Shown in pieces: positions 26,639-52,275 of a stretch of 60,950 bases of DNA (position 1 is its first letter; the number at the start of each line of letters is the position of its first letter). A model generated the notes under the pieces. It had not been told where the DNA came from, made no database searches, and saw only the letters and a list, made by a program, of their open reading frames with translations. The position numbers and the translations under genes are program-made. The stretch comes from a virus (Duplodnaviria > Caudoviricetes): IMG/VR virus record IMGVR_UViG_3300032102_000021, positions 1 through 60,950 of that record, one strand, 5' to 3'.

Positions 26639-28291
26639 ATGGCCAAGAAAAAACCAAAATACGGCGACGCAGCATTTATGGAGTATGCGCAAAAAATAGT
26701 CGACCACCCAAATTATGCTGACATGCCCGACACGATTGGCGAGCGCGGCGAAATTCAGTGGGAAGCACCATCAAATCGAAAATCTGGAAAATTCAAGGAC
26801 ACTCATCACAAACGGCGCGAGTGGTGGCGGCTAAAAGCACTTTCGATAGGAATTGATCCGAATACTGATAGCACGTGGATTAGCAAAACTGCAAAAGCAA
26901 TTCACCCTTTCGGGGTGAAGCCCTGTAAGACTTGCGGAAAAGAGCTTCAGATCGCGTACGCATATCCAAATGAGCACCTATTTGCCAGGATTCGCAAGCT
27001 ACCCTACATAAATGACACGTTTGAGCTATCTGAAGTGGAGCACGTCTGTGATCTCTTGGCGCGTCTAGATGAGCGCTTTGGGTCAAAATTGTATGAAGAT
27101 CTTCCAAAGCTCTTCGCAACAACATCTATTAGCATCCCACCTCTGGCAAAGACGTTTGATGCTTGGGAGCAATTTTTACGGGAAACGTACATCCCACAAG
27201 AGCCACGAATGCTCAGCCCTGGTGCGATGTCAAACCCTCCTGACCGGCTCGACGGATTCCACTCATTTAACCGCTGCTGTCGAGCTACAGCTGATACAGG
27301 CCGGTCCAAGGAAAATTTAAAGTCGTATGTAACTGATCGGCGGGTTTTTGAATATTGGGTGGATGGGGATTGGGTTGCTGCAGATCGCCTGATGGGTCAA
27401 GTGAGATCCAACCCAGTTTTCGAGCAAGAAAATTGCTTTAATGCGGTGCAAGGCGGCGTTCATCCCAAGCCATGCCAAGCTGATCACATCGGTCCGATAT
27501 CACTCGGATTCACGCATCGCCCACAATTTCAACTTCTGTGCAAAACCTGCAACAGCGGAAAAAACAATCGCATGTACGCCAGTGATGTGAGATTGCTGAT
27601 TGGCGTCGAGGCGGCTGGGGAGAGTGTCATCTCGTGGTTTGCCAAAGAGATTTGGAATCGCCGAAAGAATTCAGTTGGCGATGCTGAAACGGCGCTTCGC
27701 CTCAGCAAACTGCTTCGGGACAACCGCCATACATATATGTCCCTCCTGAAAGCACTTTTGGATCGTGGTTATTACACATTCCTCGCTAGCCTTTTGCATC
27801 TGGAAGCAGCGGATTTCGACCCTGAATTCGTTGGATTAAGTGCTATTAATCACCTCACACACTTTAATTCCATAACAAGAAATCCACGAACCACAAAGTA
27901 CGCGACCGAACAGAAAGCTAGGCGGATTCGAATCGCATTCACATCTCTGATCGACTACCACAGAAAGGAGAATCGAAGCGCGTTTGTCATCTCAAGCGAA
28001 TGCTCCGACGCGGAGTTCTCGGCAGGTTTTGCAGAGCTAGAGAGGCTGAAATCCCTAACAAAGGATCTCGATAAAAAAATTGCCGAAATCGTGGGTGAGT
28101 CCAAGGTGTCCGAGGCGGATCTTCGGGCGTTGGCAAATTCACTCCCCGATATTCTTTCAGCTAACGATGCTGCATTTGCGGTGGTTCGAGAACATTTCGC
28201 ACAAGGTATGCATGAGGTTGGCAAGGAACTAGACAGCATGTGGGGAGCCGACCGTTATGTGCGGTCGGCTCCTGGCGAAGTTATCGAGTGA
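26639..28291 (+). CDS. Type IIS restriction endonuclease, Alw26I/Eco31I/Esp3I family (HNH)
   Basis: HPNY..MP, CKTCG, LSPGAMSNPPDRLDGFHSFNRCCR, DHIGPISLGF...CKTCNSGKNNR; convergent with MTase. Confidence 0.9.
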   Translation: MAKKKPKYGDAAFMEYAQKIVDHPNYADMPDTIGERGEIQWEAPSNRKSGKFKDTHHKRREWWRLKALSIGIDPNTDSTWISKTAKAIHPFGVKPCKTCGKELQIAYAYPNEHLFARIRKLPYINDTFELSEVEHVCDLLARLDERFGSKLYEDLPKLFATTSISIPPLAKTFDAWEQFLRETYIPQEPRMLSPGAMSNPPDRLDGFHSFNRCCRATADTGRSKENLKSYVTDRRVFEYWVDGDWVAADRLMGQVRSNPVFEQENCFNAVQGGVHPKPCQADHIGPISLGFTHRPQFQLLCKTCNSGKNNRMYASDVRLLIGVEAAGESVISWFAKEIWNRRKNSVGDAETALRLSKLLRDNRHTYMSLLKALLDRGYYTFLASLLHLEAADFDPEFVGLSAINHLTHFNSITRNPRTTKYATEQKARRIRIAFTSLIDYHRKENRSAFVISSECSDAEFSAGFAELERLKSLTKDLDKKIAEIVGESKVSEADLRALANSLPDILSANDAAFAVVREHFAQGMHEVGKELDSMWGADRYVRSAPGEVIE

Positions 28292-31145
28292 CCTTCTCCA
28301 AATATTGCGCGGCTGAAATTTCGCTGCGCATTAGTGCCTGATATGTCGTGGTGGACTCGTGGCGATAACCAAGGTCACCGCCATCCTGTCCGGGCTGAAG
28401 GGCGGGCAGATCGTCTAGCGCCTCCTTTACCGACGGCGGTTGCGGCAAATCGCAAATCAAGTCTCTTGCAGACAGAGTCGAAATCATTGGGGGGGGAGAC
28501 TCTGGAACTTTTCCGGTGTTGTCGCCAACGATGATCACTCTGCTGCGCCGCTGTGGAATTGCATAGTTTTCGGAGTGCAGTTTCCACACAATAAGTCTCT
28601 TCGCGTGCTTCGACAATTCGTCTTTAACCATTTCGAAGACCCGCCCGCCCTCCATGTTGAGTATGCCTGTGACGTTTTCAAAGACAAAAATATCGGGCTT
28701 AAGTGCTGCAAGCAGCCCGCAGTAATCTCTAAAGAGCCAGTTTCTCTCGTCCTCCATAGAGCGTTTGTTGCCTGCGGTCGAAAATCCTTGACATGGCGGA
28801 CCTCCAAGAACACAAAGAGGCAAATCTTTATTTCTTGCCCCCTTTGCCTCCTTCAGAATCTGTTTTTTAACGCTGTCATCTGTGATGTCCCCAACTACAA
28901 TGTTCGAGTGAACATTCGTTCGATAAGTTTCGGCAAAACTCGCCTCTAACTCATTTCCGACAAGCGTTTTCCATCCTGCCCATCCAAACCCTAAGCCGAG
29001 TCCGCCAGCACCAGCAAAAAGATCTACGGCTTGTCCAACGATGTTCAAATGCCGAGCGACCTGAAATGCCAGCAAGGGAGGGACGGCATTTCCAATTTGC
29101 GTAGTGACCGAACCTTTGTTGCCTTTGAATATAAAGTTGTCAGGAAAGGATTGCAGTCGAGCGGCCTCCCTATGAGAAAGGGTTCTATGCTGCTCGTTGC
29201 TGTAATCGTAGTGAATATGGCACCCATTTCCAGGCCTGGTGAAGTAGGTGTTGATCGTGTACGAAGGCCTATCCGGGTGCAATCGTCCGTAGTATGTTGA
29301 TCGGCTTCCTTCTCCTTTGGCGAAGCTGATTCTGATGTTCTTTATTCGCTCGGAAGGAATGTCCTCAGGGATATCTTTCCAGTTCCCTCCAGGTGGAACG
29401 GAACGACAGATGCGCAAATCAAGCTCGCTAAGTGTCGCGGCGTAATGGTTTTCAATGCGTATCGCTTCTTTTTTTGATTTCTGCTCGCGAACTGCCATTG
29501 TTCTTTTAATCTCCGAAACGTCATTGGGGGAGTGTCCTTCGAGCATTGTCAATAAGTCCAAATAGACGTCATCGGGCAATCCATACCAGCTCGCCACCTC
29601 AACATCTATCTGGGCGGAATACGACTCCGAGGGTTCTCGTAGCTGTTTCTCGACCAGTTTTGATACCCGTTCTACATGCGTTCTGGATGATAGATCTGGC
29701 ACCCTTATCCGTCGGATTGCGCCTACTGATAAGTGATTTGTGCTGATTGATGCCCGCACTTGCGCTTCAAATATGACTGAGTTAAATATGCCAAGTACAG
29801 CAAGCAAAGTTTCATAGGGCATTCGCTTTGGTATAAGGACATTGAGTGAGTTCCCTGTCACTACACCAGGTGGAATGATTGTCGCTATTACTCGACGAGC
29901 TGAGCTTTGTCTTGCAACGTCTCTCCAAACTAGGCGATACAAATCGGAAGATGATGGAGGTGTGATCGTTCCTTTCAAAAATGCCGCTTCGCCACCGACC
30001 GGAGAGTAGCGAGTGATCTGCCTGCCTTTAGCAAATCGATGATTGCCTGTATCTGATAGCTTGCTCGCAATCCCTGTTTCGTCTAGCTCCCGCCCTAATT
30101 TGAAAAGGATATCCGCTCCGGTTTCGTAGTCACCTAGCCTTGGCAGATCGGCGAGAAAAGGCATCGCTCTTGCGATTTCTGGAGAGCTACTAAACCCAAT
30201 CGCATAGTGATTTTCTTCTAGAGAAGAAATCGATATTTCCAAGATGGGTGGCTGCGCATCCTGCTCTTTCTCAAAGTGCTGTATCACCTCGAGTGACCTT
30301 TTATCTTGTTGCCCTATGTTCCTGTGGCCAACAAAATATACTGCCGACTGGTCGACTCCTTCAAAAAGCCTTGCTTCTGCAGGATAGTGATGAACTGTAT
30401 CTACGGTATTTTTTGAAAATAACCAAGAACGCAAAGGCGCAGAAATTTGATCGCCGAGAATAGTGGCGGGCGCAACAATGGCAAAGTATCCTCCTGGCAC
30501 AATCAATTGCACAGAAGCTTCGATGCCGCAACGAGCCAAGTTGGCGCCCCAACCAGAAAACTTCCTAGTTGGCTTTGAATATGGATAAGCCTTTTCGAGT
30601 TGAAATACCTTTTCTTTCAAGAGTGAAACGTATGCGTCTTTGTCTTCTTGCTCAAGCTCGGCTAGCTCCCTGCTATCGGGCTTGATCGTTTCCCAGGGTG
30701 GGTTTGTTACACAGATATCAAAGGACTGCTGATTTTTTAACGCATGTTCGAATGAATCAATTGTTTGTGCGTCTACCTGCGCGACAGAGATATCAAGATT
30801 TTCAATTTTCTGTGAGATTGCTTTTTGGGCGGTTTTGATCGCCGATTGGTCGCAATCCCAGGCGGCGATTTGAAGAGATTTCGACGGAATTTTTCCTTGT
30901 TCGTACAGAGCGTCAATGAGCCAGCACAGCAGTCTTCCATCACCACAAAACGGGTCGATAATCTTTAGGCTTTCAGAAATCTCAAGGCGCTTGGTGACAT
31001 CAATCGCCATTGCTTTCCCAATCCTGGAATGCGTATAGAACCTGCCGGTTAATCGCTGCTCCAGGCTTTTTCCAACTTTGTATGTAGTTTCCACTCCCGA
31101 TGTGGCTTCAAGGAGCTGATTTAAATTCGAAGCAAACATTTTCAT
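28281..31145 (-). CDS. Fused m6A + circularly permuted m5C DNA methyltransferase (M.Alw26I/M.Esp3I type)
   Basis: GRFYT, DPFCGDG, NPPW; then REAARLQSFP and QIGNAV (motifs IX-X) before DLFAGAGG (I), GPPCQGFS (IV), ENV (VI), QRRSR (VIII). Confidence 0.93.
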   Translation of the reverse strand: MKMFASNLNQLLEATSGVETTYKVGKSLEQRLTGRFYTHSRIGKAMAIDVTKRLEISESLKIIDPFCGDGRLLCWLIDALYEQGKIPSKSLQIAAWDCDQSAIKTAQKAISQKIENLDISVAQVDAQTIDSFEHALKNQQSFDICVTNPPWETIKPDSRELAELEQEDKDAYVSLLKEKVFQLEKAYPYSKPTRKFSGWGANLARCGIEASVQLIVPGGYFAIVAPATILGDQISAPLRSWLFSKNTVDTVHHYPAEARLFEGVDQSAVYFVGHRNIGQQDKRSLEVIQHFEKEQDAQPPILEISISSLEENHYAIGFSSSPEIARAMPFLADLPRLGDYETGADILFKLGRELDETGIASKLSDTGNHRFAKGRQITRYSPVGGEAAFLKGTITPPSSSDLYRLVWRDVARQSSARRVIATIIPPGVVTGNSLNVLIPKRMPYETLLAVLGIFNSVIFEAQVRASISTNHLSVGAIRRIRVPDLSSRTHVERVSKLVEKQLREPSESYSAQIDVEVASWYGLPDDVYLDLLTMLEGHSPNDVSEIKRTMAVREQKSKKEAIRIENHYAATLSELDLRICRSVPPGGNWKDIPEDIPSERIKNIRISFAKGEGSRSTYYGRLHPDRPSYTINTYFTRPGNGCHIHYDYSNEQHRTLSHREAARLQSFPDNFIFKGNKGSVTTQIGNAVPPLLAFQVARHLNIVGQAVDLFAGAGGLGLGFGWAGWKTLVGNELEASFAETYRTNVHSNIVVGDITDDSVKKQILKEAKGARNKDLPLCVLGGPPCQGFSTAGNKRSMEDERNWLFRDYCGLLAALKPDIFVFENVTGILNMEGGRVFEMVKDELSKHAKRLIVWKLHSENYAIPQRRSRVIIVGDNTGKVPESPPPMISTLSARDLICDLPQPPSVKEALDDLPALQPGQDGGDLGYRHESTTTYQALMRSEISAAQYLEKVTR

Positions 31146-31516: not shown

Positions 31517-32542
31517 ATGGCCCGCTATTCAGAACACGACACAACCAAGATCTACCAAGCGGCTGATGCATTCCGGACCAACTGCCTCCTGAGCGACGGC
31601 TCGCTGCTGTTCGCCGACGCTTCCGTTTGGCGGCCTGACGTTCTTGATCGCATCCACAAGGCCTTCGTTGCCACTCCAGACGAAGGCGATCGCACGTTCA
31701 TCGACAAGTTCAGAGACCAGGTGGGCAAGGCAGGACAGGACGTTTCTCGCCTTGCAGCAGAGATCTTGTGCGTGTACTTCCTGTTCCCCTCCAGTGTTGG
31801 AGGAGTACGCAAGCGGCAGGTTGTGAACGAGGTCCTCGGCTGGGGCGGTGACAGCCTGCCGGAATCACACCCTGTGTCAGCAGCCTTCGCCAACGGGATC
31901 GGCAGTGGCGGCCAGGGCTACAACACCCGTCGTCCTTTCGAGATCGCCTTTCTGATCGAGTTCGCTATCGCATGGAAGAAGTTACCGCAGGATCAGCAGA
32001 CACACGTGGCCGCCGATCCGTGGCTTTTTCAAGAGCTCGTGGACAGCATTGTGGATGCCGAGTCGAAGCAGCTTCGGCACATGCTTCTTCACCTACTGTT
32101 CCCCGAACACTTTGAGCGCATAGCCAGTGGCAATCACAAGCGCAGAGTCATTAAGGCTTTCTCGGGGCTGGTTACAGCCGAATCAGAGGATGATGACCGG
32201 GCGATCTTGGCCATTCGCCGGGAGCTCGAAAAGCTGCTACCAAAACTGGAACTGGACTTTTACTGGTCGCCGTTGGTCGAGGCTTGGTACGATGACAGCG
32301 AAGGCGCATCTGAAGGCGCGCCACTGGAAATCATCCAGCACAAGAAGCAGATCGTCCTCTATCCCTTCGACCCATCCAAACCTGATACGCCACATGCCGA
32401 GCAGAATAGTCCCTGGAATTTGGAAAGCGGGAAAAGGATGGCGTTTGCCACCCTACCGCACGATCCGGACGATGCTGTGAAGAAATTAAATAATTTGATC
32501 TCAAGGCTGACTGCAGATGCCAGTCTCTATGCAAGCGCGTGA
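31517..32542 (+). pseudogene. mcrB: McrB-like N-terminal region lacking the GTPase domain, probably fused to an McrC-like tail by deletion
   Basis: LLHLLFPEHFERI and HKKQIVLY are typical of McrB-family proteins, but the expected GPPGTGKT Walker A does not follow. Confidence 0.6.
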
Positions 32543-32550
32543 GTTGAATA

Positions 32551-32796
32551 ATGACGAAATCGATCTTTTACTCTTGGCAAAGCGATTCCCCTTCGACGAC
32601 GAATAGATTTTTCTTGAGAGACTGCATCAAAGATGCGATTAAGAAACTCAATGGCGATGAGCTGGCTTCACGGAGTTTTTTTGACATGATCCGATGCTGC
32701 TCCTTGAGTAACACTCGTACCTACTCGGCCGTTGTTTGGGCGGAGAACATCGAATTTGCCTGGACCAGGGCATCTGGAGAAACTGAACGGGCTTGA
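32551..32796 (+). pseudogene. Truncated TIR-like/nucleotide-binding domain gene (YSWQSD family)
   Basis: IFYSWQSD...NR.F...I..AIKKL start; similarity lost after about 40 aa; ORF runs into the convergent gene. Confidence 0.6.
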
Positions 32797-34979
32797 TCCA
32801 GCGCCAGCGCTCGTGCCTCTGCCGTAAGTTGCATGCTAGCTCGATTGGAATCGTGAAGCCACAGCACGTAACAGGCCCAGGCTTTCAACGGCCCACCAAT
32901 TAAATTTGCAACTTCCGCAATCAGTTTGCACAGCCCCTCGTCTAGTGAGAGGTCGGTGACTGCACGTATGGTTTGCCTGAACCCTTGGCCTTTTGTTGCA
33001 GCCTTATTGAATGTCGCGATGATCTCTGCAGGCGCTGCGTTGACGATTTTGCGCAAGAAAGCAGGGATTTCAACGTCATCCATATTCCCGAAGCCAAGCG
33101 CATCAATCTGCATCGATCTTGAGCCCTGCTTGGAACGCCAAACAGAGGGCAAGGAAAAACTCTCGGCCACAAAAGGCGTACTCTCCGAAGCCATGCGGAA
33201 CATGACCGGTCCTGAATTGCTGCGGCGGCTAAATCGAACCTGGGACGCATCCATAACGACTGTGCTCGAACCACCCCAACCTGCAGCTAGCATTGGTCGC
33301 ACCTGATGAAGCGCCGGCATGCCGTCTGTTTTTTCAGTCTCTGCGCGCTCAATCACAAGTAACAGGTTGGTTTCGTCTGTCACCAACTGGTAGCGCTCGG
33401 CCATCTGCGCGCCAACGCTGCGGTCTGCTGTCAATCCGATCTCGCGGGCCGCGACAATCCGAGCGATCAGGTCATCTTCCCGAACTGTAAGCTCGGCCCC
33501 GATGGCGTCCAGACCGGCAATGTCGAGGAGAGGTGAACGCTCGGGGAGCACGGGCAGACGCATGAACAGGTGAATTGTTTCACCAGAGGCTAGGCGGCGT
33601 GGCATGGGACTGCACCACAGGGGGGTAGTGGGGGATTCCATTCGGGCTTGCACCGGCAGTGCAAGGCGAATCCGCCCCAGCAGCCGCTGTATTGCCGCGG
33701 TCATGCTTTCACGTGGTGTAGCGAATTCGCAGGCGCCACCGGTGGCTTCGGCCATTTCCCGCAGTAGGCTTTCGGCCGGTGCACTGCCTACTCCTAAGGC
33801 ATAGATCCGGTGGCCGCTGCGCCTAGCGTCGTCGACTATGCGCTGTGCATCCCAGACCTCGCCGTCGGTGATCAGCAGGACATCGGCCTCATCGGCATGG
33901 TGCGCGGTGCCCATGTGCAGCGAGAAGGTGTCCTGCAGGGCGCTAGCCATCTCCGTGCCGCCTAGGTCCGCTTCGGTGGTGTTGATGGCATCGAGCAGCC
34001 GCTTGATGTTGGCGGGCGTTCCGTCCATCACACCCAGGACACGCTGGGTCTGTGAGCCAAAACGACTGAGCGAAACCTGGTCCTCTGGCTTGAGCAGACT
34101 GGCCAAGGGCCGCAACGCTTCGCGTGCCTGGTTGATGCTGTTGCCGGCCATCGAGCCCGAGCAGTCCACCAGCATCTTCAGGCGCAGGGCTGAAGGCTTC
34201 TGCTGCGGAACCTCCGGACAGTAGCTGGCCACAAGCGCCGCATGCCCCTCACCACTTCGGGGGTCATTACTGGCAATGGCGAACGAACGTCCTTCCAGCC
34301 CCTCGAGCAGCAGCACGAAATCCCGGTCGAGCCACGCTGTGCCTTGCAGTTCGACGGTGACGCCAGCTTCGCTGCGCTGCTGCGTAATGGTATGGGTTGG
34401 GCTGCCAATGCGGGCTTGCCCGACGGCACCCCACAGTGTCACCGAGAGCCCGAAACGGTGCTCGGCCGCCAAGCTGGGCGTGGCCGCCTGGTCGGGCGAG
34501 AGTTTGCCCTGTGTAAGCGCATCTCCGTAGCGAGGTGCAATCGTCGTAGGGACCACCAGGCGGATACGACCTTGTTCGAAGGAGAGCAGTTGCGCGTAGC
34601 GAAGTTCGATGGTGGCCTCTTCCCCGGGCTTGAGGCTGCCCAGCGTGGCGATGAACAGATTGCCCTCGGACTTTTCCACCATGACCGGGGCATCACCTTT
34701 CTCTACCGCCTCTTCATAACGCTCGCGGGCCTCCTGGCGCGCTATCACCTGTCCCGTCATGCGCTTGCCACCCAGCGTGGCCTCTAGGCCCAGTAGCACC
34801 GATCCCCAGGCCAACGGAAAGGTGTAGACCACTTCCATGTTGTCGTCTGAGCTGTTGCTAAACGACTGGCGCAGCGTCATCGACAACAACAGGCCTTCGA
34901 GCTTGCCGTGGGCGCTGACCGATTTCAGGACCGGCTCTTCAGAGCCCAGGGACGTCAGGGATGGGTACTCATTCTTCAT
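32721..34979 (-). CDS. VIT + vWA domain protein (VWA5A/PARP4-like architecture)
   Basis: EVVYTFPL and A.ERYEEA (VIT), LDRDFVL, VDCSGSM MIDAS, GGTE, LITDGEV, A.ATGG; start MKNEY with AGGA SD. Confidence 0.92.
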   Translation of the reverse strand: MKNEYPSLTSLGSEEPVLKSVSAHGKLEGLLLSMTLRQSFSNSSDDNMEVVYTFPLAWGSVLLGLEATLGGKRMTGQVIARQEARERYEEAVEKGDAPVMVEKSEGNLFIATLGSLKPGEEATIELRYAQLLSFEQGRIRLVVPTTIAPRYGDALTQGKLSPDQAATPSLAAEHRFGLSVTLWGAVGQARIGSPTHTITQQRSEAGVTVELQGTAWLDRDFVLLLEGLEGRSFAIASNDPRSGEGHAALVASYCPEVPQQKPSALRLKMLVDCSGSMAGNSINQAREALRPLASLLKPEDQVSLSRFGSQTQRVLGVMDGTPANIKRLLDAINTTEADLGGTEMASALQDTFSLHMGTAHHADEADVLLITDGEVWDAQRIVDDARRSGHRIYALGVGSAPAESLLREMAEATGGACEFATPRESMTAAIQRLLGRIRLALPVQARMESPTTPLWCSPMPRRLASGETIHLFMRLPVLPERSPLLDIAGLDAIGAELTVREDDLIARIVAAREIGLTADRSVGAQMAERYQLVTDETNLLLVIERAETEKTDGMPALHQVRPMLAAGWGGSSTVVMDASQVRFSRRSNSGPVMFRMASESTPFVAESFSLPSVWRSKQGSRSMQIDALGFGNMDDVEIPAFLRKIVNAAPAEIIATFNKAATKGQGFRQTIRAVTDLSLDEGLCKLIAEVANLIGGPLKAWACYVLWLHDSNRASMQLTAEARALALDQARSVSPDALVQANSMFSAQTTAE

Positions 34980-35382
34980 GGTCTTCCTTCGTGATGCGGT
35001 TCCAGGCAGCCAGAACCTCTTTGGCCAATGCCCGCACTTGCTCGGGTGTGGCTTGCGCTTGCTCGGGGGACACCTGGACCTCGATGCCGGGTGCGATCTG
35101 GATATGGCTTTTGACTTCAACGGCGCCGAACGCCTGCGGCCGCGTGGGCACTGCCGGTGGTTCACCTGACAACACATCGCGGACACGCTCCAGTGAGATG
35201 CCAGCATCAGTGAGCTGCTTGATCCGCAGCAGTGCATCCAGGTGGGTATTCAGGTACCGAGCGCCTCGGTTTTCGCCTTGTGGCCGGGGAAGCAGGCCGA
35301 GCTGTATGTAGTAGCGCACCGTTCGCTTGGGCACTGCCGCCAGTGTGCAGAGCTCGTCGAGGGAGAAGGTTTGAGGTGACAT
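34969..35382 (-). CDS. MerR-family HTH regulator
   Basis: FSLDELC...VPKRTVRYYIQLGLLPRP...ARY...L.RIKQL...G.SLE. Confidence 0.9.
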   Translation of the reverse strand: MSPQTFSLDELCTLAAVPKRTVRYYIQLGLLPRPQGENRGARYLNTHLDALLRIKQLTDAGISLERVRDVLSGEPPAVPTRPQAFGAVEVKSHIQIAPGIEVQVSPEQAQATPEQVRALAKEVLAAWNRITKEDHEE

Positions 35383-35444
35383 GCTTGCAATGTAACACCA
35401 TTACTGTTAAATTAAACTGTCACATAAAAATAGAATCCCGACAG

Positions 35445-35507
35445 AATCGATCAGTTACTCCATCCCTTCGGGATAAGGCACTCCCGAAACGGGAGGTTTG
35501 ACGGATT
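35445..35507 (+). ncRNA. Candidate structured leader RNA 1
   Basis: Closing helix plus two hairpins just downstream of a TAGAAT -10 box (35431-35436); folded by eye. Confidence 0.3.
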
Positions 35508-35596
35508 GAGGTAGTTCGTGGTTTGCTGAAAAAGGACAAGGGCTTGATGGACAGGCCTGACTCCATTGAGTGCCACCAAGCCGAAAAGGAGAAAAG

Positions 35597-35842
35597 ATGA
35601 CTACCACCCGCCGCCTTACCGTGGATGCCGTAATGAAGATGGCAACCGCCGCCGCACAGAAACATGTCGACGCCTCGCCCGGTGATCGGAAGGCCAATGC
35701 CGATCTGAGCGCTGCAATCGCAGCCACCTGGGAGTTGGTGAAGGGTCGGCTTGGCTCGTCGGAGTCAGCCGCTTTGGACGGACTGATCACCAAACTCGTA
35801 GGCCGTCCAAATCAGGCCGGGCCTGAAAGCACCTCGAACTGA
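35597..35842 (+). CDS. Hypothetical protein
   Basis: AAGGAG SD, 81 aa, helical. Confidence 0.6.
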   Translation: MTTTRRLTVDAVMKMATAAAQKHVDASPGDRKANADLSAAIAATWELVKGRLGSSESAALDGLITKLVGRPNQAGPESTSN

Positions 35843-35854
35843 AAGTGCAGTGCT

Positions 35855-36199
35855 ATGGATGACACGCATGCGCCTTGGATCGAGCTTGATCGGGACGATT
35901 TTCTTGATGCGATCAGGCGGCTAAAGCCTAGCCGAATGCTCAAGTCATACCAGGCCAAAGAGCTGCAAATCGGTTTCGATGGCGCAGAGGTGACCTTCTG
36001 CATTGAAGGGGCTACCACCCGTCGACCTGCCCAGGGTGCCTGGAATGGCTTCGCATGTATCTCATATGGAATGCTGCTGCCCTACCTCAAGGTCAAGCCT
36101 GAAACAGAGCGTATGCGCCTCGTGTTCCACAACGGGCGCCTGAAGATCGGAACGGCTCGCCTCCAAGCGCGTTGGATCAGTGCGATCTACAGCGGGTGA
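35855..36199 (+). CDS. Hypothetical protein
   Basis: 114-aa ORF co-oriented in the gene run. Confidence 0.6.
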   Translation: MDDTHAPWIELDRDDFLDAIRRLKPSRMLKSYQAKELQIGFDGAEVTFCIEGATTRRPAQGAWNGFACISYGMLLPYLKVKPETERMRLVFHNGRLKIGTARLQARWISAIYSG

Positions 36200-36286
36200 T
36201 TGGCAAAACGTTTCTTGCGACAGATGACAGCCAAATTAATTATCGTTTTGAAAAGATATGTTAGGATCTGTGGAACATTTTGAGTT

Positions 36287-36404
36287 GGGCCGACGCCCAC
36301 GCCAACCTGCCTTCCCGGGCAAGGTGGATCGCGAAAGCGAATGTGGCTCCCTGTGGAGCAACCAAGCGGGAAGCGTCGGCCCTCCAGATCGGAGGGCTTT
36401 TTTG
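36287..36404 (+). ncRNA. Candidate cis-regulatory RNA (four-way junction with competing terminator/SD-sequestering hairpin)
   Basis: Perfect 10-bp P1 (36287-36296/36373-36382), three inner hairpins including a GAAA tetraloop, overlapping GCCCTCC/GGAGGGC hairpin plus U-tract. Confidence 0.65.
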
Positions 36405-36830
36405 TTTTCAGATTCCACCATTGATCCCGCCACCATCCAGGCATACCTGGAGACGCACTACCGCGTGCATGGCGAGGCCCCCTTCGTTCTACAAATCGAT
36501 CAGGTCAGTCCGGACCTGCTGAAGCTGTACGAGCGCTACAACCTGGACTGCGCCGCCTTCCTCACCGGCTGGAACCCCTTCAGCCGAGAGGTCAGTGAAG
36601 CTGAAAACCGAGATCGTCAGAAAGCGCTGGCGGCAGAACTGACCCGGCGTAGCTTGGCTTTTCTCGAAGGAATCGGCCAGCACCCGTCGAACAACTGGCC
36701 AGGCGAAGAGAGCCTCCTCGTCCTGGGCTTGTCTCTGGAAGCAGCCAAAACGCTGGGGGAGCGCTTCGAACAAAACGCGATCGTTTGGTGCGGCGCCGAT
36801 GGTGTGCCCCAACTCATCGTCTTGAGATAA
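36402..36830 (+). CDS. DUF3293-domain protein
   Basis: AY..T.Y, AFLTGWNPFS...EN, W.EES, A..LG.RFEQNAI; TTG start after GGAGGG. Confidence 0.88.
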   Translation: MFSDSTIDPATIQAYLETHYRVHGEAPFVLQIDQVSPDLLKLYERYNLDCAAFLTGWNPFSREVSEAENRDRQKALAAELTRRSLAFLEGIGQHPSNNWPGEESLLVLGLSLEAAKTLGERFEQNAIVWCGADGVPQLIVLR

Positions 36831-37228: not shown

Positions 37229-37693
37229 ATGATGACTGGCCCACTAGATCTGAACCCCAACGTATACGGCGCAGGATCACGGATCCTGAGCAAAGAGGAT
37301 GCGCTGCGGGCCTACGCCTGGATGATGAACACCCTTGATGCTTCGCGTCTGGAGTCGCTGTTGGCAGAGGATTTTCACTACGCATCCCAATGGGTTTTTT
37401 CCGAGATCACGTCCAAGGCCGAATACCTTGCATACATCACGCCTAAGCTCGAGGCCATTCGGCGCTCGGGGGCCACTGTGTGGGCTGAGATGGGGGCTCT
37501 TGATCGAGAACTGCCAGGGCCTTGTGTCGTCATGGCTCAGGGCGATCGGGAAAAGCTGGCCGCAGTGGTTTTGGCGACCGTTGAGGGCGACAAGATCAAG
37601 CGACTCGATCTATGTGGTGCGCCTTCCCCACACTCAGCCAGGCGCTCCGGTATCTACCCGGGGAGAAATGACAGGGAGGCAGCCTCATGCTGA
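37229..37693 (+). CDS. SnoaL/NTF2-like fold protein
   Basis: LESLLAEDFHY, EGDKIKRL patterns. Confidence 0.6.
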   Translation: MMTGPLDLNPNVYGAGSRILSKEDALRAYAWMMNTLDASRLESLLAEDFHYASQWVFSEITSKAEYLAYITPKLEAIRRSGATVWAEMGALDRELPGPCVVMAQGDREKLAAVVLATVEGDKIKRLDLCGAPSPHSARRSGIYPGRNDREAASC

Positions 37694-38262
37694 CTGATCG
37701 AATCTCTGAAGCACTCGCTCTTGCAGTCCAAGCCCACGAAAAGCAAGTGCGCAAGGGAACATTGATTCCCTACGTGGCGCACCCAATGGCTGTGGCCTCG
37801 ATCGCCCTAGAGTTCGGAGCCGACGAAGATCAGGCGATTGCTGCACTCCTCCACGATGTACTCGAAGATGGGGGGGCACAGTACGGGCCTGTCATTAAGG
37901 AGCGTTTTGGCGAGCGAGTTCTGGCCATCGTAGACGGATGCACCGACGGAGTGCCAGACGCTTCCGGCCAGAAAGCTGACTGGGGCGAAAGAAAACGAGC
38001 CTACCTGGCCCACCTTGCTCAGGCTTCGGATGACGTCCTGCTTGTCTCGGGCTCCGACAAGCTACACAACGCTCGCGCGATCGTCAGCGACCTTCTGAAG
38101 ATTGGGCCTGACGTATTCAATCGCTTCACAGCCGGGCGTGATGGGACTCTCTGGTACTACCGGTCCTTAGCTGAAATCTTTGAACAACGCCGCGCTCCAA
38201 TGGCTGCCATCCTTGCGGCGGAAGTGATTCAGATAGAACAACTGGCGGGAGCCAATACGTGA
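37687..38262 (+). CDS. HD-domain hydrolase, RelA/SpoT-type (Mesh1/small alarmone hydrolase-like)
   Basis: AH..Q.RKG..PY..HP, ALLHDVLED, DKLHN. Confidence 0.9.
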   Translation: MLTDRISEALALAVQAHEKQVRKGTLIPYVAHPMAVASIALEFGADEDQAIAALLHDVLEDGGAQYGPVIKERFGERVLAIVDGCTDGVPDASGQKADWGERKRAYLAHLAQASDDVLLVSGSDKLHNARAIVSDLLKIGPDVFNRFTAGRDGTLWYYRSLAEIFEQRRAPMAAILAAEVIQIEQLAGANT

Positions 38263-41906: not shown

Positions 41907-42740
41907 ATGGATCAGATGCGCTATCCACCGTGGGTAATCTTGCATATTCCGCATGATTCCAGCGTTATTCCCTCGAAGGTGCGATCTCAGTTTCTTTTGT
42001 CCGACGCGGAACTGAAGCTCGAGTTACAGCGCATGACCGATCACTTCTCTCACGCGCTTTTCGCAGAACCCCATGGCGATGCCACGGTGGTTCGGGCGCC
42101 AGTTAGTCGCCTGGTTGTTGATGTGGAGCGATTTCCCGATGACGCGACTGAGCCGATGGCAGGCCGCGGAATGGGCGCGATCTACGAAGTCACGTCTCAA
42201 CTGGCACCTCTCAGAAGGAAGTTGCCAGCACAGGAACGCGATACGCTGATGCTCGAGTGGTATCACTCTCATCACCATCGACTTGAAACCGCTGTTTCAG
42301 ATGCAGTGGTGAGGTATGGTCGATGTGTGGTGATCGATTGCCACAGCTTCCCGGGCACCGCATTGCCCTATGAGCAAGCGGATCCGGCTGTTGAACGACC
42401 GGACATCTGTATCGGCTCTGATCCGTATCACACCCCTGAATGGCTTGAGCAAGCTTTCGTCGAAGCTTTCTGTCGCGACGGTTGGCGCGTCTCAGTAAAT
42501 GATCCCTTTGCAGGAGCACTGGTGCCTGCAAACCGGTATCAGGTGGATCCAAGAGTGACGGCAGTGATGGTGGAGGTAAACCGTGATCTCTACTTGGACA
42601 GTAAAACTTTTGAGCCCAAGTTGGATTTCGGCCGAGTCGCAGATGCAATTAAAGCCTACTGTTTCGATGCTTTGGCCAACTGCTATGCCGAGTATTCCAA
42701 CCTGAGCGCGCGTCAAGCCACCTTGGCACGGGGAGCGTGA
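41907..42740 (+). CDS. N-formylglutamate amidohydrolase family protein
   Basis: HIPH, TD, SRLVVDVER, DCHSF, PDICIG, N.PFAG, MVEVNRDLY. Confidence 0.92.
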   Translation: MDQMRYPPWVILHIPHDSSVIPSKVRSQFLLSDAELKLELQRMTDHFSHALFAEPHGDATVVRAPVSRLVVDVERFPDDATEPMAGRGMGAIYEVTSQLAPLRRKLPAQERDTLMLEWYHSHHHRLETAVSDAVVRYGRCVVIDCHSFPGTALPYEQADPAVERPDICIGSDPYHTPEWLEQAFVEAFCRDGWRVSVNDPFAGALVPANRYQVDPRVTAVMVEVNRDLYLDSKTFEPKLDFGRVADAIKAYCFDALANCYAEYSNLSARQATLARGA

Positions 42741-45283: not shown

Positions 45284-46165
45284 CTATGCGTCGAGTGACT
45301 CGCATTCCACGATAAATTTGAACTCCGTCAGAATCTCCGGGTGGTGCTGCTGCAAGTACCGTTCGATCTCGGTGTTTTCTAGCCATTTGGCCAGGAGCTT
45401 GCTGGCCAGCAGCAAATTGAAAACATCCTGGCTGAAGGTTTGTTCAGCAAGTTTGTATTGCTCTTGCAGACTTCCCATCTCGCGCTCCATGTTGGCCATT
45501 TGTGTCGGACTCACACCGGCGACTTTTTTGGCGACGACCGCATCCACCAGCTGGTTCGGAGGTGTCGCCGCATACAGTGCATTGGCATAGGCCAGGGTGA
45601 CACAGTTGGCGTCCACCATCAATTCAACACACTCGACCTGACGCATCGGCTTCATTTTCTTCAAAATGCTGCCAAGGTCAGCCGCAAATTGCTGATCTTT
45701 CAGCAGTGCCACGGCCTCGGCGCAGATGCCGTCGAGCAGATTGAGCTTTCGAGTGATGGTGGAGACATCCAGGTCCAGTGCATCGGCCAAACGTTGCGCC
45801 GTGACCCCTTTTTCAACTGCCCTGCGAAGCATCACATGTTCTTGAACCGATGACAGACGGTTGATTCGCGTGTTGTAGGTGTAACTTTCGTCATCGGTGG
45901 ACTCCAGGCACAACGCTTCGGTGTGCTCCAGCGATCGCAGTGCCAGCAATCGCAAATGACCATCGAGTAGAACGCGGTGCCCCGTTTTCTTGTCCGCAGG
46001 CCCAACCGTCAATGGCTCGATGAGTCCGACGGCCTTGATGGAGGCTTGGATTTGCATGAATTTTCTGGTCGTCAATATTCTGGAAAGCGCTTTGCGTGAC
46101 GGCAAAATCAGGTCAAGAGGAATGGAGAGTGGATCCAACAGGAAGGCGAGGGACAGTTGCGCCAT
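45284..46165 (-). CDS. ParB/RepB-like partitioning protein (RepB C-terminal domain)
   Basis: SIKAVGLIEPL, LLDGHLRL, YTYN...N.LS..QEH, LKKMKP.RQ. Confidence 0.85.
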   Translation of the reverse strand: MAQLSLAFLLDPLSIPLDLILPSRKALSRILTTRKFMQIQASIKAVGLIEPLTVGPADKKTGHRVLLDGHLRLLALRSLEHTEALCLESTDDESYTYNTRINRLSSVQEHVMLRRAVEKGVTAQRLADALDLDVSTITRKLNLLDGICAEAVALLKDQQFAADLGSILKKMKPMRQVECVELMVDANCVTLAYANALYAATPPNQLVDAVVAKKVAGVSPTQMANMEREMGSLQEQYKLAEQTFSQDVFNLLLASKLLAKWLENTEIERYLQQHHPEILTEFKFIVECESLDA

Positions 46166-46166
46166 T

Positions 46167-47062
46167 TCAAGCTCCTTTCGGCCATACACGTTCGGCCAGG
46201 TACGTTGGCAAGGTGTCCAATCCTTCGGCCCGAAGCAAGGTCGTGAAGTGCTCATTGACCAGGAGTTGCCCCAAGGCGCCGATCACGAATAAGAGGCGTT
46301 GCTGGGCCGCCCCCGCCTTTTTGACCATCAGCTTTTGGCGTTCAACTTCCTTTTGATAGGTTCGGACCAGGCTTGATGCCGTGATGTCTACCGCCACACG
46401 TTGCGTACCCCGACCCAATGCACGCCCAAAGGTCTGGCGCTTTTCGATGATCCGACGGGCTTGGATCAATTGCTTTCCACGCAGCAAACCGGACTCGTAG
46501 GCGTCCTGCAGCGCGGCCTGTACAGCCTCATTGTTGTTGCCCGCGCCCACAATCTCCAAAGCCGCATTCAGCGGTATGCGGCCACTCTCTACCGCCACCA
46601 TCAGGCGCTCCTCTCCATTCTTGATAAGAAGCATGATCCCCTGCACGTAGTCAATGCTCAGGCCAGTTTTCTTGGCGATGGTTTTTTGTCATAACCCTTG
46701 GCCACCAGTTGCTGGATGCCCGCCAGCAGTTCGAGGGGGCTGGATTTGCGACGGGCGATGTTTTCCACCATGCTCATAATGAAGGCGTCTTCATCGTTGA
46801 CATCCACAACCATTGCAGCAATGGTGGTCTCGCCTAGGGCCATAAACGCTTTGAGCCTGCCTTCGCCACAAACGAGTAAGTATTTTTCAGCGCCATCGTC
46901 CCCAGGGCGCGGGGTCACAGTGATGGGTTTTTTGAGTCCGACGGATTTGATGTTCTCAACGATGCCCTCAAAAACCTGCTTGTTACGCTCACGCGGATTG
47001 AGCACCTCTATCCGGTCGACAGGGATCATGCGCAGATTGCCTATAGGCTGCTTTTTGGTCAT
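46167..47062 (-). pseudogene. ParB/RepB/Spo0J protein split by a 1-nt indel in an A6 run (46682-46687)
   Basis: 5' ORF has GLKKPI, LVCGEGRL and ENIAR; adding one A joins it to the 3' ORF via DKKTIAKKTGLSIDYV (HTH). Confidence 0.8.
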
Positions 47063-48624
47063 GATGCCCTCCGCAGGCGTGTGCGCTGGGCCATGCCATA
47101 GAAAAATTCCAGAGTGTCAAAGCGGTAGCTTTCAATTTCGATGGCATTGCGATCGGCCAGACTGATGCGCGGCTGCCCGAAATCCAGGCGCGGCAGGAGG
47201 TAGTAGTCCAATGGTGCATCGTTGGCATGGTTCAGCCGCACGGCCACTGTGATGTCAGGCGCCAGGCTGGTGTCAAATCTCACCTTCCAGCGGTTGCGCC
47301 CGTTGTCATGGGTTTGGCAGCGCGCCAGCACCAGGGACACCGTGAATTCCCTGTTGACCAACAGCAGGTCTGTGGCGGGATCCCTTTCAATGGTGCCACC
47401 CAACTCGCCGATGGCTTGTTCTGTCTGCGCGACGATTTTGGGGTGCAGTCGTCGCAAGAACTGGTTGGCTTCCAGGTATCGGTAATCTCGGTCGGGCGTG
47501 AACCCCACTGTTTGGTAGGCACGAATCAGGCTTCCAAATTTGTGGATGTAGGCCGAGGAGGAGGGCATTCCCTCGGTTTCGTCAATGATCAGTCCCGACA
47601 GATACCCCCGGTGCTCATAGAGATTGCGCAGCTTTTCGATCAGATCTTCCATGCTGTAGCGGTGCGTGCGCCCGCGAATGATCCCTTGTGCCATGTAGAA
47701 CGTTTCTGGTGGAACGATGGCTTCGAAGGCGCCCTCTTTCCTGACCCACTTGTCTGGCTCGTTGACGGTGCGCAGCATCTTGAGTTTGAACGAGATACGG
47801 TTGAACACGTTGTTGCCGATGTACTTTTCGTTGGTCAACACCTGATGCACCGTGGCCCGTGTCCAATTGCGCCCCAGGTCCGTGCGCACGCCTTGTTCGT
47901 TGAGACGAGTCGCGATTTCAGATTCGGACAGACCATGCTCTGTGAACCAGCGATAGATCTGGAGCACGTTTTGAACCTCGACGTCTGGCCCAGGCATCAA
48001 GATGACACGGTCGGTTTGCAGGCTTTTGTGCTCCCCGCGCGCCAGCTCCGCCTTCACGGATCCTGTCTGATCCAGTAGCACGCGCCGCAGTCCATAACCG
48101 GCAGGGCCGCCCTGGCGGTAGCCCAGTTCGATCAGTCGGCACTGACCGGCGAACACCTTGACCGAGAGTTCCCGGCTGTATTCACCGGCCATGGCGCGCT
48201 TGACGCCTTTGACGATGGTGGAGACTGGGGATCCATCGTTATCGAATTGTTCAGCAACGTACCGGACGTGAACGCCTTTGCGCTTGAGGAGGTGTTCGTA
48301 GAACGCCGCTTCGTCAGGGTCCTGAAACCGTCCCCAGCGACTGACGTCGTACACCAAGACCAATTTGAAGTCGATGGCCCCGGCGTCCACGTCCCCGAGT
48401 AGCTGCTGCAGTGATTTGCGCCCGCCGATGTTCAGACCGCTTTTGCCATCATCGGCATAGGTGCGAACAATTTCAATGCCTTGAACTCGGGCGTACTCGC
48501 GGATTTTGTCGGCCTGGTTTTCGGTGGAGTACTGCTGGTGCTCCGTTGACATGCGAACATATTCCGCGGCGCGAATGCGTTTGGACGGTTCCGTCTGTTC
48601 TCCTGTGGCCTCATTGTTTTGCAT
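47059..48624 (-). CDS. Large serine recombinase 1
   Basis: YVRMSTEHQ catalytic Ser, D.GKSG, DVSRWGR, G..GYG, LTNEKYIG. Confidence 0.95.
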   Translation of the reverse strand: MQNNEATGEQTEPSKRIRAAEYVRMSTEHQQYSTENQADKIREYARVQGIEIVRTYADDGKSGLNIGGRKSLQQLLGDVDAGAIDFKLVLVYDVSRWGRFQDPDEAAFYEHLLKRKGVHVRYVAEQFDNDGSPVSTIVKGVKRAMAGEYSRELSVKVFAGQCRLIELGYRQGGPAGYGLRRVLLDQTGSVKAELARGEHKSLQTDRVILMPGPDVEVQNVLQIYRWFTEHGLSESEIATRLNEQGVRTDLGRNWTRATVHQVLTNEKYIGNNVFNRISFKLKMLRTVNEPDKWVRKEGAFEAIVPPETFYMAQGIIRGRTHRYSMEDLIEKLRNLYEHRGYLSGLIIDETEGMPSSSAYIHKFGSLIRAYQTVGFTPDRDYRYLEANQFLRRLHPKIVAQTEQAIGELGGTIERDPATDLLLVNREFTVSLVLARCQTHDNGRNRWKVRFDTSLAPDITVAVRLNHANDAPLDYYLLPRLDFGQPRISLADRNAIEIESYRFDTLEFFYGMAQRTRLRRAS

Positions 48625-50820: not shown

Positions 50821-52275
50821 TCAGACCGGCTTGGCATGCGTTCGACTGGCTTTTTGAGGGGCATCTTCGGCGGCCAGGGGTAGCTCTGCCATGTCTTTGA
50901 TCTGCTGGATCAGCCCTGGCACGTCCATCTCAATGCGCATGCCATCGGGGTACAACGTGACGCGCTTAATCAACCGGAACAAGACGCCGGCGACCGTGAA
51001 CTCTGTAAAAAGATTCCAGGCCTCATCCAGGCGCAGCAGGGACTTTCGGATGCCGTCCTCATCAAGAACACAGTCGTCGGGCAGGTTTCTTTGCACCATC
51101 GGCAGCCAGGCCGTGGGATCTTTGAAATGCTGGCGCAGGTGTTCGGTAACGAACCGGTGAACCTCATCTACCGACAAATTGAACGGTGGCAGGCCGGCGG
51201 CCTTTTCTGCTTCGGTGGCCGGGCCCATGTAATAGCGGTACTGGCCCTTGTCGCGCAGCGAGGACTTGAACAGGGTGTACGGGCGCCCGTCATGCCAAAA
51301 CAGCCGGTTGCTCAGGGGGAACTCGAGCTCACTCCACCCCTGGTTGGGTACGCCCTTGCGCCTTGCCCGCTGCGCCAGCTTTTCCTGAACGGCTCGCCAC
51401 AGATCCAGGTCGATGATGGGTGAATAGATGCCGCTATGCCACTCGCCATCAAACTGCGCCTCTCCGATGTACATCCGGTTGCCGAACATCCGGTACAAGG
51501 TGGTGCGGTCCATGGGGCGGCCACCCCGGGGGTTGCCATCGCGCGTAATCCATTTCTTGGTCTTGACCTTCTGACGCTCAATCCACGCCATCAAATCTGC
51601 CATGGTCTCTGACGCCACATAGCGCCTGAAAATCTCACGCACCAAACTGGCATCGGACTTGTTCACTACCAAGCGTTGCTCGAAATCGACTTCGTAGCCC
51701 AAGGGGGTGCCACTGCCTTGCCAGCGCCCCTGGCGGCGCGTGGCAGAGAGCTTGTCACGGGTGCGCTCCCCGATGGTCTCTCGTTCGAACTCGGCAAAGC
51801 TGGTGAGTAGGTTCAATGACAAGCGGCCGTTGGGCGAATGGGTGTCAATCTGCTGGGTTACGCTGACCAGCTCGACACACTTGAGCCGCAGAAGCGGTAG
51901 CAGCACGTCAGTCAGGTCAAACAGGCTACGACTGAGCCGATCCAGTCGGTGCACCACGATCACCTCGACCTCGCCCTGCTGTACGAGCTCCATCAGGGCA
52001 CGCAGTCCCGGGCGATGAAGATCTCGAGCGCTTTCACCGTCGTCGGTGTAAGCCGGGCCAGCCAAACACCATCCCAAGCCAAACTGGCTGGCGACATACT
52101 GTTCGCAAGCCTCAATTTGCGCTGCAAGCGAGTTGAACTCGCCAGACTGGGCGTCGGCGACGGACACGCGCGCATAAACCGCGCAGCGCACAATGGGCTG
52201 CGACGGCTGCGACGGCTGGGGGGTTGCGGCGGGTGCTTGGATGGGGCTCACAGCCCACATCATCTCAAACAACAA
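50821..52275 (-). CDS. Large serine recombinase 2 (exact start uncertain)
   Basis: YARVS, RPGL, RLDRLSRS, FAEFERE.IGER, G..PLGY, N..YIG. Confidence 0.93.
   Translation of the reverse strand: MLFEMMWAVSPIQAPAATPQPSQPSQPIVRCAVYARVSVADAQSGEFNSLAAQIEACEQYVASQFGLGWCLAGPAYTDDGESARDLHRPGLRALMELVQQGEVEVIVVHRLDRLSRSLFDLTDVLLPLLRLKCVELVSVTQQIDTHSPNGRLSLNLLTSFAEFERETIGERTRDKLSATRRQGRWQGSGTPLGYEVDFEQRLVVNKSDASLVREIFRRYVASETMADLMAWIERQKVKTKKWITRDGNPRGGRPMDRTTLYRMFGNRMYIGEAQFDGEWHSGIYSPIIDLDLWRAVQEKLAQRARRKGVPNQGWSELEFPLSNRLFWHDGRPYTLFKSSLRDKGQYRYYMGPATEAEKAAGLPPFNLSVDEVHRFVTEHLRQHFKDPTAWLPMVQRNLPDDCVLDEDGIRKSLLRLDEAWNLFTEFTVAGVLFRLIKRVTLYPDGMRIEMDVPGLIQQIKDMAELPLAAEDAPQKASRTHAKPV

Follow-up and report, generated by a model that had tools for sequence, protein, structure and literature searches.

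Why would a phage-borne protein built from VIT and vWA domains carry the tail of the bacterial cell division protein FtsZ? The question is raised by IMG/VR virus record IMGVR_UViG_3300032102_000021, a complete record of 60,950 nucleotides (nt) that was analyzed over its whole length and is referred to here as the window. On its minus strand, a gene for a MerR-family regulator is followed by one for a 752-residue VIT-vWA protein. The original prediction, made from the letters of the sequence, had singled out in the latter an FtsZ-like peptide, DDVEIPAFLRK, and had taken it as a docking site on the divisome or as a decoy or sensor for phage inhibitors of FtsZ. The peptide lies at the position described (33080–33048, minus strand; residues 634–644), with a small helical domain after it. 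On balance, and in our estimate at somewhat better than an even chance, the VIT-vWA protein uses its tail to dock at, or to contend for, FtsZ-tail receptors, as a stress-linked, MerR-controlled brake on, or tag at, cell division.

The FtsZ-like tail and the protein that carries it

The likeness to FtsZ is longer than the 11 residues first noticed. In BLASTP, residues 607–644 of the VIT-vWA protein (33048–33161) align with residues 386–423 of the 426-residue FtsZ of Polaromonas, with 20 of 38 positions identical, and because this alignment has an E value of 2e-10 the match can be placed, on sequence grounds, far beyond chance. The Polaromonas copy of the VIT-vWA protein aligns even further with the FtsZ tail of its own genome (37 of 49 identical, E 7e-20). 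The likeness thus covers about 38 residues, the last 38 of 41 of Burkholderiales FtsZ, and includes a lineage-specific PSVWR box. Among the ftsZ genes that were fetched from genomes with relatives of the VIT-vWA protein, those of Aquabacterium, Polaromonas and Tepidimonas encode C-termini with a PSVWR-type box, about 20 further residues and an ending of the form (D/E)xEIPAFLRKQAD. The linker of the window protein is arranged in the same way, with a PSVWR box (residues 611–615), a spacer and then EIPAFLRK (637–644). The E. coli FtsZ tail is DYLDIPAFLRKQAD, in which I374 and L378 play a critical part in the binding of ZipA, FtsA and MinC (PMC4117426). Their counterparts in the window protein are I638 and L642, and the window protein has the core (D/E)-(I/V)-P-x-F-L-(R/K) by which the FtsZ C-terminal conserved peptide is recognized.

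The box upstream of the terminal peptide is a feature of Burkholderiales FtsZ in its own right. It is conserved about 25 residues before the terminal peptide (loci L009, L010, L011, L019, L029–L033, L039 and L040), has the form PSVWRxxR where the genome is Comamonadaceae-like and P(A/T)V(F/I)RxxR elsewhere, and is followed by (V/I)(D/E)A(L/M). The VIT-vWA tails copy this second box as well. We know of no partner for it, and the box is brought to attention here as an unstudied part of the FtsZ linker; that the VIT-vWA mimic conserves it too suggests a further site of binding.

Judged from the domain searches, the tail is the only part that the VIT-vWA protein has in common with FtsZ. The FtsZ family model TIGR00065 has no match in the window, and Pfam shows a VIT and a VWA domain in the protein and no tubulin-like GTPase domain. 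The VIT domain occupies residues 18–128 (34596–34928; PF08487, 89.6 bits against a cut-off of 26.5, E 1.9e-25) and is modeled as confident beta structure. The vWA domain spans residues 265–420 (33720–34187), with matches to Pfam VWA, VWA_3 and VWA_2, the first at residues 270–419 (PF00092, 61.6 bits against 23.8, E 1.5e-16). Its metal ion-dependent adhesion site (MIDAS; DxSxS, T, D) is intact, the residues D272, S274, S276, T342 and D372 being invariant across 83 aligned sequences. An AlphaFold2 model built from this 83-sequence alignment has a mean predicted local distance difference test score (pLDDT) of 82.5. It consists of a confident body at residues 18–560 (VIT, vWA and a beta/helical module), a linker at residues 575–644 that falls below 50 and contains the FtsZ-like motif, and a confident six-helix domain at residues 650–751 with a pLDDT of about 90. 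With Foldseek, the best match to the model is ITIH1 (6fpy/6fpz; E 1.8e-29, template modeling (TM) scores of 0.42–0.51 over about 600 columns), so that the VWA5A-like architecture that had been proposed is confirmed as an ITIH/VWA5A-like fold. No hydrophobic segment was seen when the N-terminus was read by eye, and the protein is therefore probably cytoplasmic. The C-terminal helical domain (residues 645–752; 32724–33047) has no Pfam match at E ≤ 1; in the Atlas it has no match of 0.9 or more and none with a TM score of 0.5 or more, the best feature matches, at 0.84, being a lead only.

The position of the peptide also differs from that in FtsZ. It is internal, with 108 residues after it, and the FtsZ-like tail forms the end of a predicted-disordered linker whose preceding part (residues 575–606; 33162–33257) varies in sequence from one homologue to another. 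Since the segment has a pLDDT below 50, the motif does not appear to be buried in the fold.

Conservation of the motif was examined in three sets of homologues. The core is present in 101 of 120 near homologues (exact IPAFLR in 84), in 63 of 150 representatives of clusters at 50% identity (exact in 35) and, by regular expression, in 160 of 256 retrieved homologues of at least 650 residues, 7 shorter proteins having been dropped from the 263 retrieved. The last set holds 163 motifs, as three proteins have two; 154 of these are internal and 9 stand at the very C-terminus, as in FtsZ. Proline is kept in all 163, phenylalanine and leucine in 160 each, and the position equivalent to E. coli I374 is I, V, L or M. 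Many members hold the full IPAFLRKQAD ending, and when C-terminal regions were scored against 19 FtsZ tails, 147 of the 256 proteins reached at least 60 with one or more of them. In the 83-row alignment, the commonest residue has a mean frequency of 0.67 in the core and 0.52 in the PSVWR box, compared with 0.70 in VIT and 0.67 in vWA; just before the tail it drops to 0.18, with 33% gaps. The core is an island of conservation in a variable linker, as conserved as the folded domains. The likeness noted in the original prediction is thus both upheld and extended, in its length, in its conservation across the family and in its placement within a predicted-disordered linker.

In most members, the tail and the helical domain occur jointly. 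Those without a match to the regular expression show either decayed remnants or a clean loss of the tail. At loci L003, L004 and L006, the VIT-vWA core and an AAGWGG segment are kept and the C-terminal region is a different one, without an FtsZ tail. Because of this exchange, the core may in some members be paired with alternative targeting modules.

The tail could resemble FtsZ simply because it was acquired recently. In the Polaromonas genome, however, 34 of 42 tail residues equal those of the genome's own FtsZ and only 14 of these 34 are encoded by identical codons; in genome G719, 29 of 39 residues are equal, with identical codons for 13 of the 29. As the residues match while the synonymous sites have diverged, the codon comparison indicates that the likeness is kept by selection at the protein level, and not by recent DNA transfer. 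Matching to the host was assessed by comparing the C-terminal regions of 16 genome-linked VIT-vWA proteins with the 45 C-terminal residues of each of 19 FtsZ proteins, drawn from 18 genomes. Rows L034 and L024, missed by the marker pattern, and L006, L027 and L028, for whose genomes no FtsZ had been fetched, were left out. A tail was called where the best score was 45 or more, which was the case in 9 of the 16 proteins, and for these the FtsZ of the same genome ranked 1, 1, 1, 1, 2, 3, 4, 15 and 18 out of 18. Permutation gave P 0.0006 for four top ranks and P 0.0095 for the rank sum. Some family members have a ...DYLDIPAFLRRQAD-type tail, the best match of which is to gamma-type FtsZ tails.

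A separate observation concerns three loci, L004 (Tepidimonas), L005 (a Fimbriimonadaceae metagenome-assembled genome, MAG) and L006 (a Tepidimonas MAG), where the MerR proteins and the upstream DNA are near-identical though two phyla are named. The tail at L005 is closer to Burkholderiales FtsZ than to the FtsZ of its own genome. This likeness suggests recent transfer or a mis-binned contig.

The MerR partner and a proposed role at the division site

The gene upstream encodes a 137-residue protein (34969–35382, minus strand) with a MerR_1 domain (PF13411, 55.2 bits against a cut-off of 21.6, E 7.5e-15). A MerR gene is found directly upstream of the VIT-vWA gene at 21 of 21 distinct genome loci as well as in the window, so the coupling to MerR that had been proposed is a constant of the family. 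Both genes are on the minus strand, and the stop of the MerR gene overlaps the start of the VIT-vWA gene by 11 nt. As listed, the VIT-vWA open reading frame (ORF) begins at 35237 and would encode 838 residues; the ATG at 34979 (MKNEYPS...) gives 752 residues and a gene, with its stop, at 32721–34979. The extension upstream of 34979 overlaps the MerR ORF, and alignment to an identical 752-residue protein and to homologues of 751–757 residues starts at residue 1; the ATG at 34979 is therefore the most likely start. The interval 32721–35382 includes both genes, with the promoter (35388–35416) just beyond it.

In its AlphaFold2 model (mean pLDDT 88.5), the MerR protein has an N-terminal winged helix-turn-helix (residues 1–72), with a short helix at 64–71, a proline-rich linker, a beta-hairpin at 92–104 and a helix at 113–136. 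The long coiled coil is absent, and a small domain of hairpin and helix takes its place. Foldseek matches of the model are limited to the N-terminal domains of MerR proteins (root-mean-square deviation 1.3–3.3 over about 65–78 columns), and no NCBIfam equivalog is matched above its cut-off.

The promoter, read from the sequence, has a −35-like TTTAAT (35416–35411), a dyad ACAGT-aat-GGTGT (35407–35395) and a −10-like TACATT (35394–35389). A layout of TTGnnn, an ACAGT-N3-ACTGT dyad in a spacer of about 17 nt, TAnnAT and 5–8 nt to the ATG recurs at most of 18 other loci. Since the dyad lies in the spacer of the MerR gene's own promoter, it suggests autoregulation; since the −10-like element is only 6 nt before the MerR ATG, the mRNA of the two genes appears to be leaderless or near-leaderless. 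A scan with a consensus promoter made no call at this site, and a terminator scan found none after the VIT-vWA gene. Control by LexA was considered and dropped, the dyad reading ACAG...CTGT and not the CTGT...ACAG of a LexA box. Three metatranscriptome runs contain contigs, 90–97% alike, that span portions of both genes, which is no proof of transcription, because such libraries may contain DNA.

The FtsZ tail is a hub for the anchors, positioning systems and protease that act on the division ring. As FtsZ uses the same peptide for FtsA, ZipA, MinC, ZapD, SlmA and ClpX, the VIT-vWA protein would most likely use its FtsZ-like tail to occupy these receptors. The MerR-type regulator would most likely bind the ACAGT-N3-ACTGT dyad in its own promoter and control both genes. 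Once the operon is on, the tail would either recruit the VIT-vWA protein to the membrane or the site of division, or make it a rival of FtsZ filaments for the anchors that these use; recruitment is an equally good reading as competition, and for the tail-bearing members it is docking on the divisome as such that we infer. More speculatively, the vWA/MIDAS core might hold a second ligand, and the C-terminal helical domain might multimerize the protein, as a peptide of weak affinity would need for competition. The net outcome would most likely be that cell division is braked, or tagged, under certain conditions, in the service of the mobile element or the stressed host.

Candidate receptors are at hand in the genomes concerned. 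The ftsA gene stands beside ftsZ at 11 FtsZ loci, and ZipA_C and ZapD matches were found in all four Burkholderiales genomes that carry the family. In E. coli, ectopic fragments containing the junction of the FtsZ linker and the last 15 residues are dominant-negative (bioRxiv 10.1101/2022.01.04.474984). A link to stress comes from the Limnobacter VIT-VWA protein LT3126, which is induced by gamma rays, heat and oxidants, rises strongly from very low basal protein levels and, when overexpressed, increases survival about 200-fold (bioRxiv 10.64898/2026.05.23.727404). Compared with our family by description only, this induction would possibly fit a checkpoint-like role. A bolder form of the proposal, which we hold only tentatively and regard as rather unlikely as it stands, is that the captured, host-matched FtsZ tail is a competitive plug on the anchors and regulators of the Z-ring, that is, a self-mimicry checkpoint that holds up cytokinesis upon DNA damage, heat or prophage induction and that could explain the protection of about 200-fold seen in Limnobacter.

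Several observations weigh against a role for the tail in division. By regular expression, 96 of the 256 homologues have no motif. In an unrooted tree made by a quick method from the N-terminal 575 residues of 83 rows, hand-picked from the 263 proteins to cut redundancy, a tail is present in 63 rows, weak in 12 and absent from 8, and the 8 tail-less rows are scattered such that 8 changes are needed, at least 5 of them forced by well-supported branches. The pattern fits an old tail that was lost repeatedly, and the scatter implies that the core protein functions without it. The window copy itself is only 20/38 identical to the FtsZ tail and ends in RKIVN rather than RKQAD. In two of the nine tail-bearing genomes, the own FtsZ ranked as low as 15th and 18th; one is the Fimbriimonadaceae MAG, whose island is closely like one in Tepidimonas, and the other has a gamma-type-looking tail, so the poor ranks may reflect recent transfer or mis-binned contigs. 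The promoter spacer was counted as 16–17 nt in the window, L027 and L015, where classical MerR activators have spacers of 19–20 bp. Monomeric tail peptides bind weakly (20 µM for ZipA, 50 µM for FtsA and 81 µM for SlmA; PMC4117426), and competition would therefore need a high copy number or multimerization. Finally, a 5-fold rise in LT3126 mRNA was not accompanied by slower growth (bioRxiv 10.64898/2026.05.23.727404), and the effect of LT3126 may be independent of a tail, as this protein has 708 residues, like the tail-less P0037 and P0029.

Of the other ways in which an FtsZ tail could be put to use, the one that survives best, though we think it improbable, is that it serves as a turnover signal. 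The VIT-vWA protein would then be a substrate of, or a competitor at, ClpXP, and its level would rise when the protease is busy under stress. A degron review (PMC8138137) reportedly contains the FtsZ-tail peptide. The FtsZ tail counts ClpX among its binding partners (PMC4117426), and the low basal and strongly induced level of the Limnobacter protein is of the kind expected (bioRxiv 10.64898/2026.05.23.727404). However, 154 of the 163 motifs are internal and followed by a folded domain of about 100 residues. Such a position is a poor place for a C-terminal degron, and a simple degron would not need the PSVWR box and flanks, which are matched to FtsZ as well.

Only slightly more improbable is a role in defense, which had been part of the original prediction: the tail would be a decoy for a phage protein directed against FtsZ tails or against the receptors of these, and binding would trigger the vWA core or free the MerR control. 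The setting is suggestive, in that the window cassette adjoins a type II restriction-modification pair and other loci lie amid restriction-modification genes, integrases, an AbiEii-like gene and a Cas-associated gene, and the MerR gene has a weak PADLOC match to mad1 (E 2.1e-7). The VIT-vWA protein itself, however, matches no PADLOC family, Pfam and NCBIfam searches reveal no nuclease, pore or NTPase effector domain in it, and MerR is the sole conserved partner gene. Nor are we aware of a phage protein directed at the FtsZ tail. The proposal of a decoy or sensor for phage inhibitors finds no support in the PADLOC search.

We give still less credence to an internal switch, in which the tail binds the protein's own helical domain, its vWA/MIDAS or the C-terminal domain of MerR, and FtsZ tails or receptors flip the switch. 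It would make sense of a tail and helical domain that travel together in most members, of the unusual, conserved C-terminal domain of MerR and of the overlap of the two genes, which suggests coupled translation. In the single-chain AlphaFold2 model, however, the tail is packed on no domain with confidence, the pLDDT staying below 50 through residue 644; 9 motifs are located at the C-terminus, after the helical domain; and the matching of the tail to the host is better explained by a host receptor. As for a relic without function, left by an ancient joining to the 3' end of ftsZ, which would account for a tail lost or decayed many times and for the fairly diverged copy in the window, it is very improbable given the codon and conservation data, since protein-level identity was kept while synonymous sites diverged and a tail as conserved as the folded domains is matched to the FtsZ of the host.

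A portable cassette in a phage accessory region

The gene content of the window points to a lambda-like temperate phage, with the cassette in its accessory region. Lambda-type terminase, portal, protease, decoration, tape-measure, tail-tip and lysozyme genes are found at 5–26.5 kb and partition and serine-recombinase genes at 44–55 kb; the cassette is located between these blocks and adjoins the restriction-modification pair. It also occurs in other surroundings. For a 23,896-nt contig of run X5, the match to the window is confined to 32663–35428, with 77 differences, and the sequence to either side is unlike. The left break recurs in contigs of X21 and X22, and the right break in a contig of X20, where the flanking letters are the same too. 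From these common break points, it can be deduced that promoter, MerR gene and VIT-vWA gene move as one unit of 2.77 kb (32663–35428).

Just outside the breaks is an imperfect direct repeat of 28 nt (32546–32573 and 35433–35460; 75% identical), which could be due to chance or be a recombination scar. An ORF of 81 residues (32551–32796, plus strand) starts 9 nt after one of 341 residues (31517–32542) and overlaps the 3' end of the VIT-vWA gene in antisense; neither has a Pfam match at E ≤ 1. Because the left break of the cassette (32663) falls inside the shorter ORF, this ORF may be what remains of a gene that was interrupted when the cassette arrived. On the other side, two small ORFs of 90 and 114 residues with no family (35570–36199 and 36258–36830, plus strand) are divergent from the MerR gene, and a DUF3293 protein is encoded nearby. 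These three are shared with the Polaromonas island L001 (53–72% identity in tblastx) and not with L002, for which reason a subset of the cassettes may carry extra genes.

The restriction-modification pair (26639–31145) consists of an endonuclease of the Alw26I/Eco31I family (PF09665, E 1.3e-187) and a methyltransferase of 954 residues that fuses an N6-adenine module to a C5-cytosine module. The GC content falls to about 0.50 across this stretch. Elsewhere in the accessory region are genes for an HD_4-domain protein (37687–38262, plus strand) and a protein of the N-formylglutamate amidohydrolase family (41907–42740, plus strand). ParB/RepB-like genes (45284–47062), three large serine recombinases with Resolvase and Recombinase domains (47059–48624, 50821–52275 and 53598–55019, minus strand) and an HTH-M78 (IrrE-like) protein (55765–56886) follow.

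At other loci, the neighbors of the MerR/VIT-vWA pair include integrases, restriction-modification genes and various repair genes, none of them conserved as a third member; an AbiEii-like gene and a Cas-associated gene are further neighbors. The repair-type neighbors are UmuC-like at L001, SprT-like at L004 and L005, and SRAP and WYL-WCX at L005. A link to DNA damage drawn from these neighbors was dropped as too thin, L004 and L005 being the same island. The family is sparse, with 4 of 401, 11 of 401 and 4 of 400 genomes in the phylum, order and class samples, respectively. No relative was found at E ≤ 1e-20 among 50,697 deposited phage records, and a search of IMG/VR returned only distant vWA proteins, at no more than 31% identity, from 11 loci. 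The description of the VIT-vWA protein as one of mobile elements accordingly holds in part: it agrees with the accessory region of a lambda-like phage and with the presence of the cassette in other contexts, and it finds no backing in the deposited phage records.

Comparison with known systems

Motif mimicry and division regulators are both already known; what is new is an FtsZ tail on a VIT-vWA protein, together with the mechanism proposed for it. Full-text literature searches turned up no paper that describes an FtsZ tail outside FtsZ, whether on a VIT-vWA protein or on any other, in agreement with the statement in the original prediction that the combination had not been described, and the literature with the peptide string, by titles and abstract openings among the matches listed, deals with FtsZ itself. 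If the proposed docking is correct, this would be the first case known to us of short-motif self-mimicry aimed at the bacterial divisome, by a natural, widespread and host-matched non-FtsZ protein. It would supply a natural competitor for studying or perturbing the receptors of the FtsZ tail, and it would give a role to a large bacterial group of VIT-vWA proteins that is labeled 'Ca-activated chloride channel family protein' in databases.

The closest comparison is with the FtsZ tail itself. The (D/E)-I-P-A-F-L-R-K core, the equivalents of I374 and L378, the disordered linker in front and the PSVWR box of Burkholderiales are the same; however, a VIT-vWA protein replaces the tubulin-like GTPase, and the peptide mostly stands inside the protein, ahead of a helical domain. 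With the division inhibitors of stress responses and prophages, such as SulA, lambda Kil, DicB, MciZ and SidA/DidA, the cassette has in common a proposed conditional brake on division, carriage by a prophage or island and a dedicated regulator. The known inhibitors are small proteins that bind the globular domain of FtsZ, MinC/ZipA or late divisome proteins, and to our knowledge none carries FtsZ's own tail.

Among VIT-vWA proteins, the ITIH heavy chains, VWA5A and PARP4 have the same domain order and fold, with an intact MIDAS. Their identity to the window protein is only about 15%, and the latter is bacterial, predicted to be cytoplasmic and extended by the FtsZ tail and helical domain at its C-terminus. 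The best NCBIfam match of the window protein is to another VIT-vWA protein, the marine proteobacterial sortase target protein TIGR03788, but this reaches 202.7 bits against a cut-off of 551.65, covers residues 26–474 only, and no signal peptide or sorting signal was seen in the window protein. LT3126 of Limnobacter thiooxidans is, like the present protein, a Burkholderiales VIT-VWA protein of comparable length (708 residues) and patchy occurrence, thought to be horizontally acquired (bioRxiv 10.64898/2026.05.23.727404). The accessible text of that paper mentions neither MerR nor FtsZ, and the likeness to the MerR-linked family is one of description only; nonetheless, the proposed docking offers a testable mechanism for this reported radiation-protective gene.

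A vWA protein has been linked to FtsZ by genomic evidence once before, in the FtsZl1-vWA operons (Makarova and Koonin 2010, PMC2875224). There, the gene of a whole FtsZ-like GTPase stands beside those of vWA proteins, often secreted or membrane-bound, and of OmpA-like proteins and GTPases (PMC2875224). In the window cassette, by contrast, it is the FtsZ tail alone that is present, fused into a vWA protein that is probably cytoplasmic, with MerR as its sole partner.

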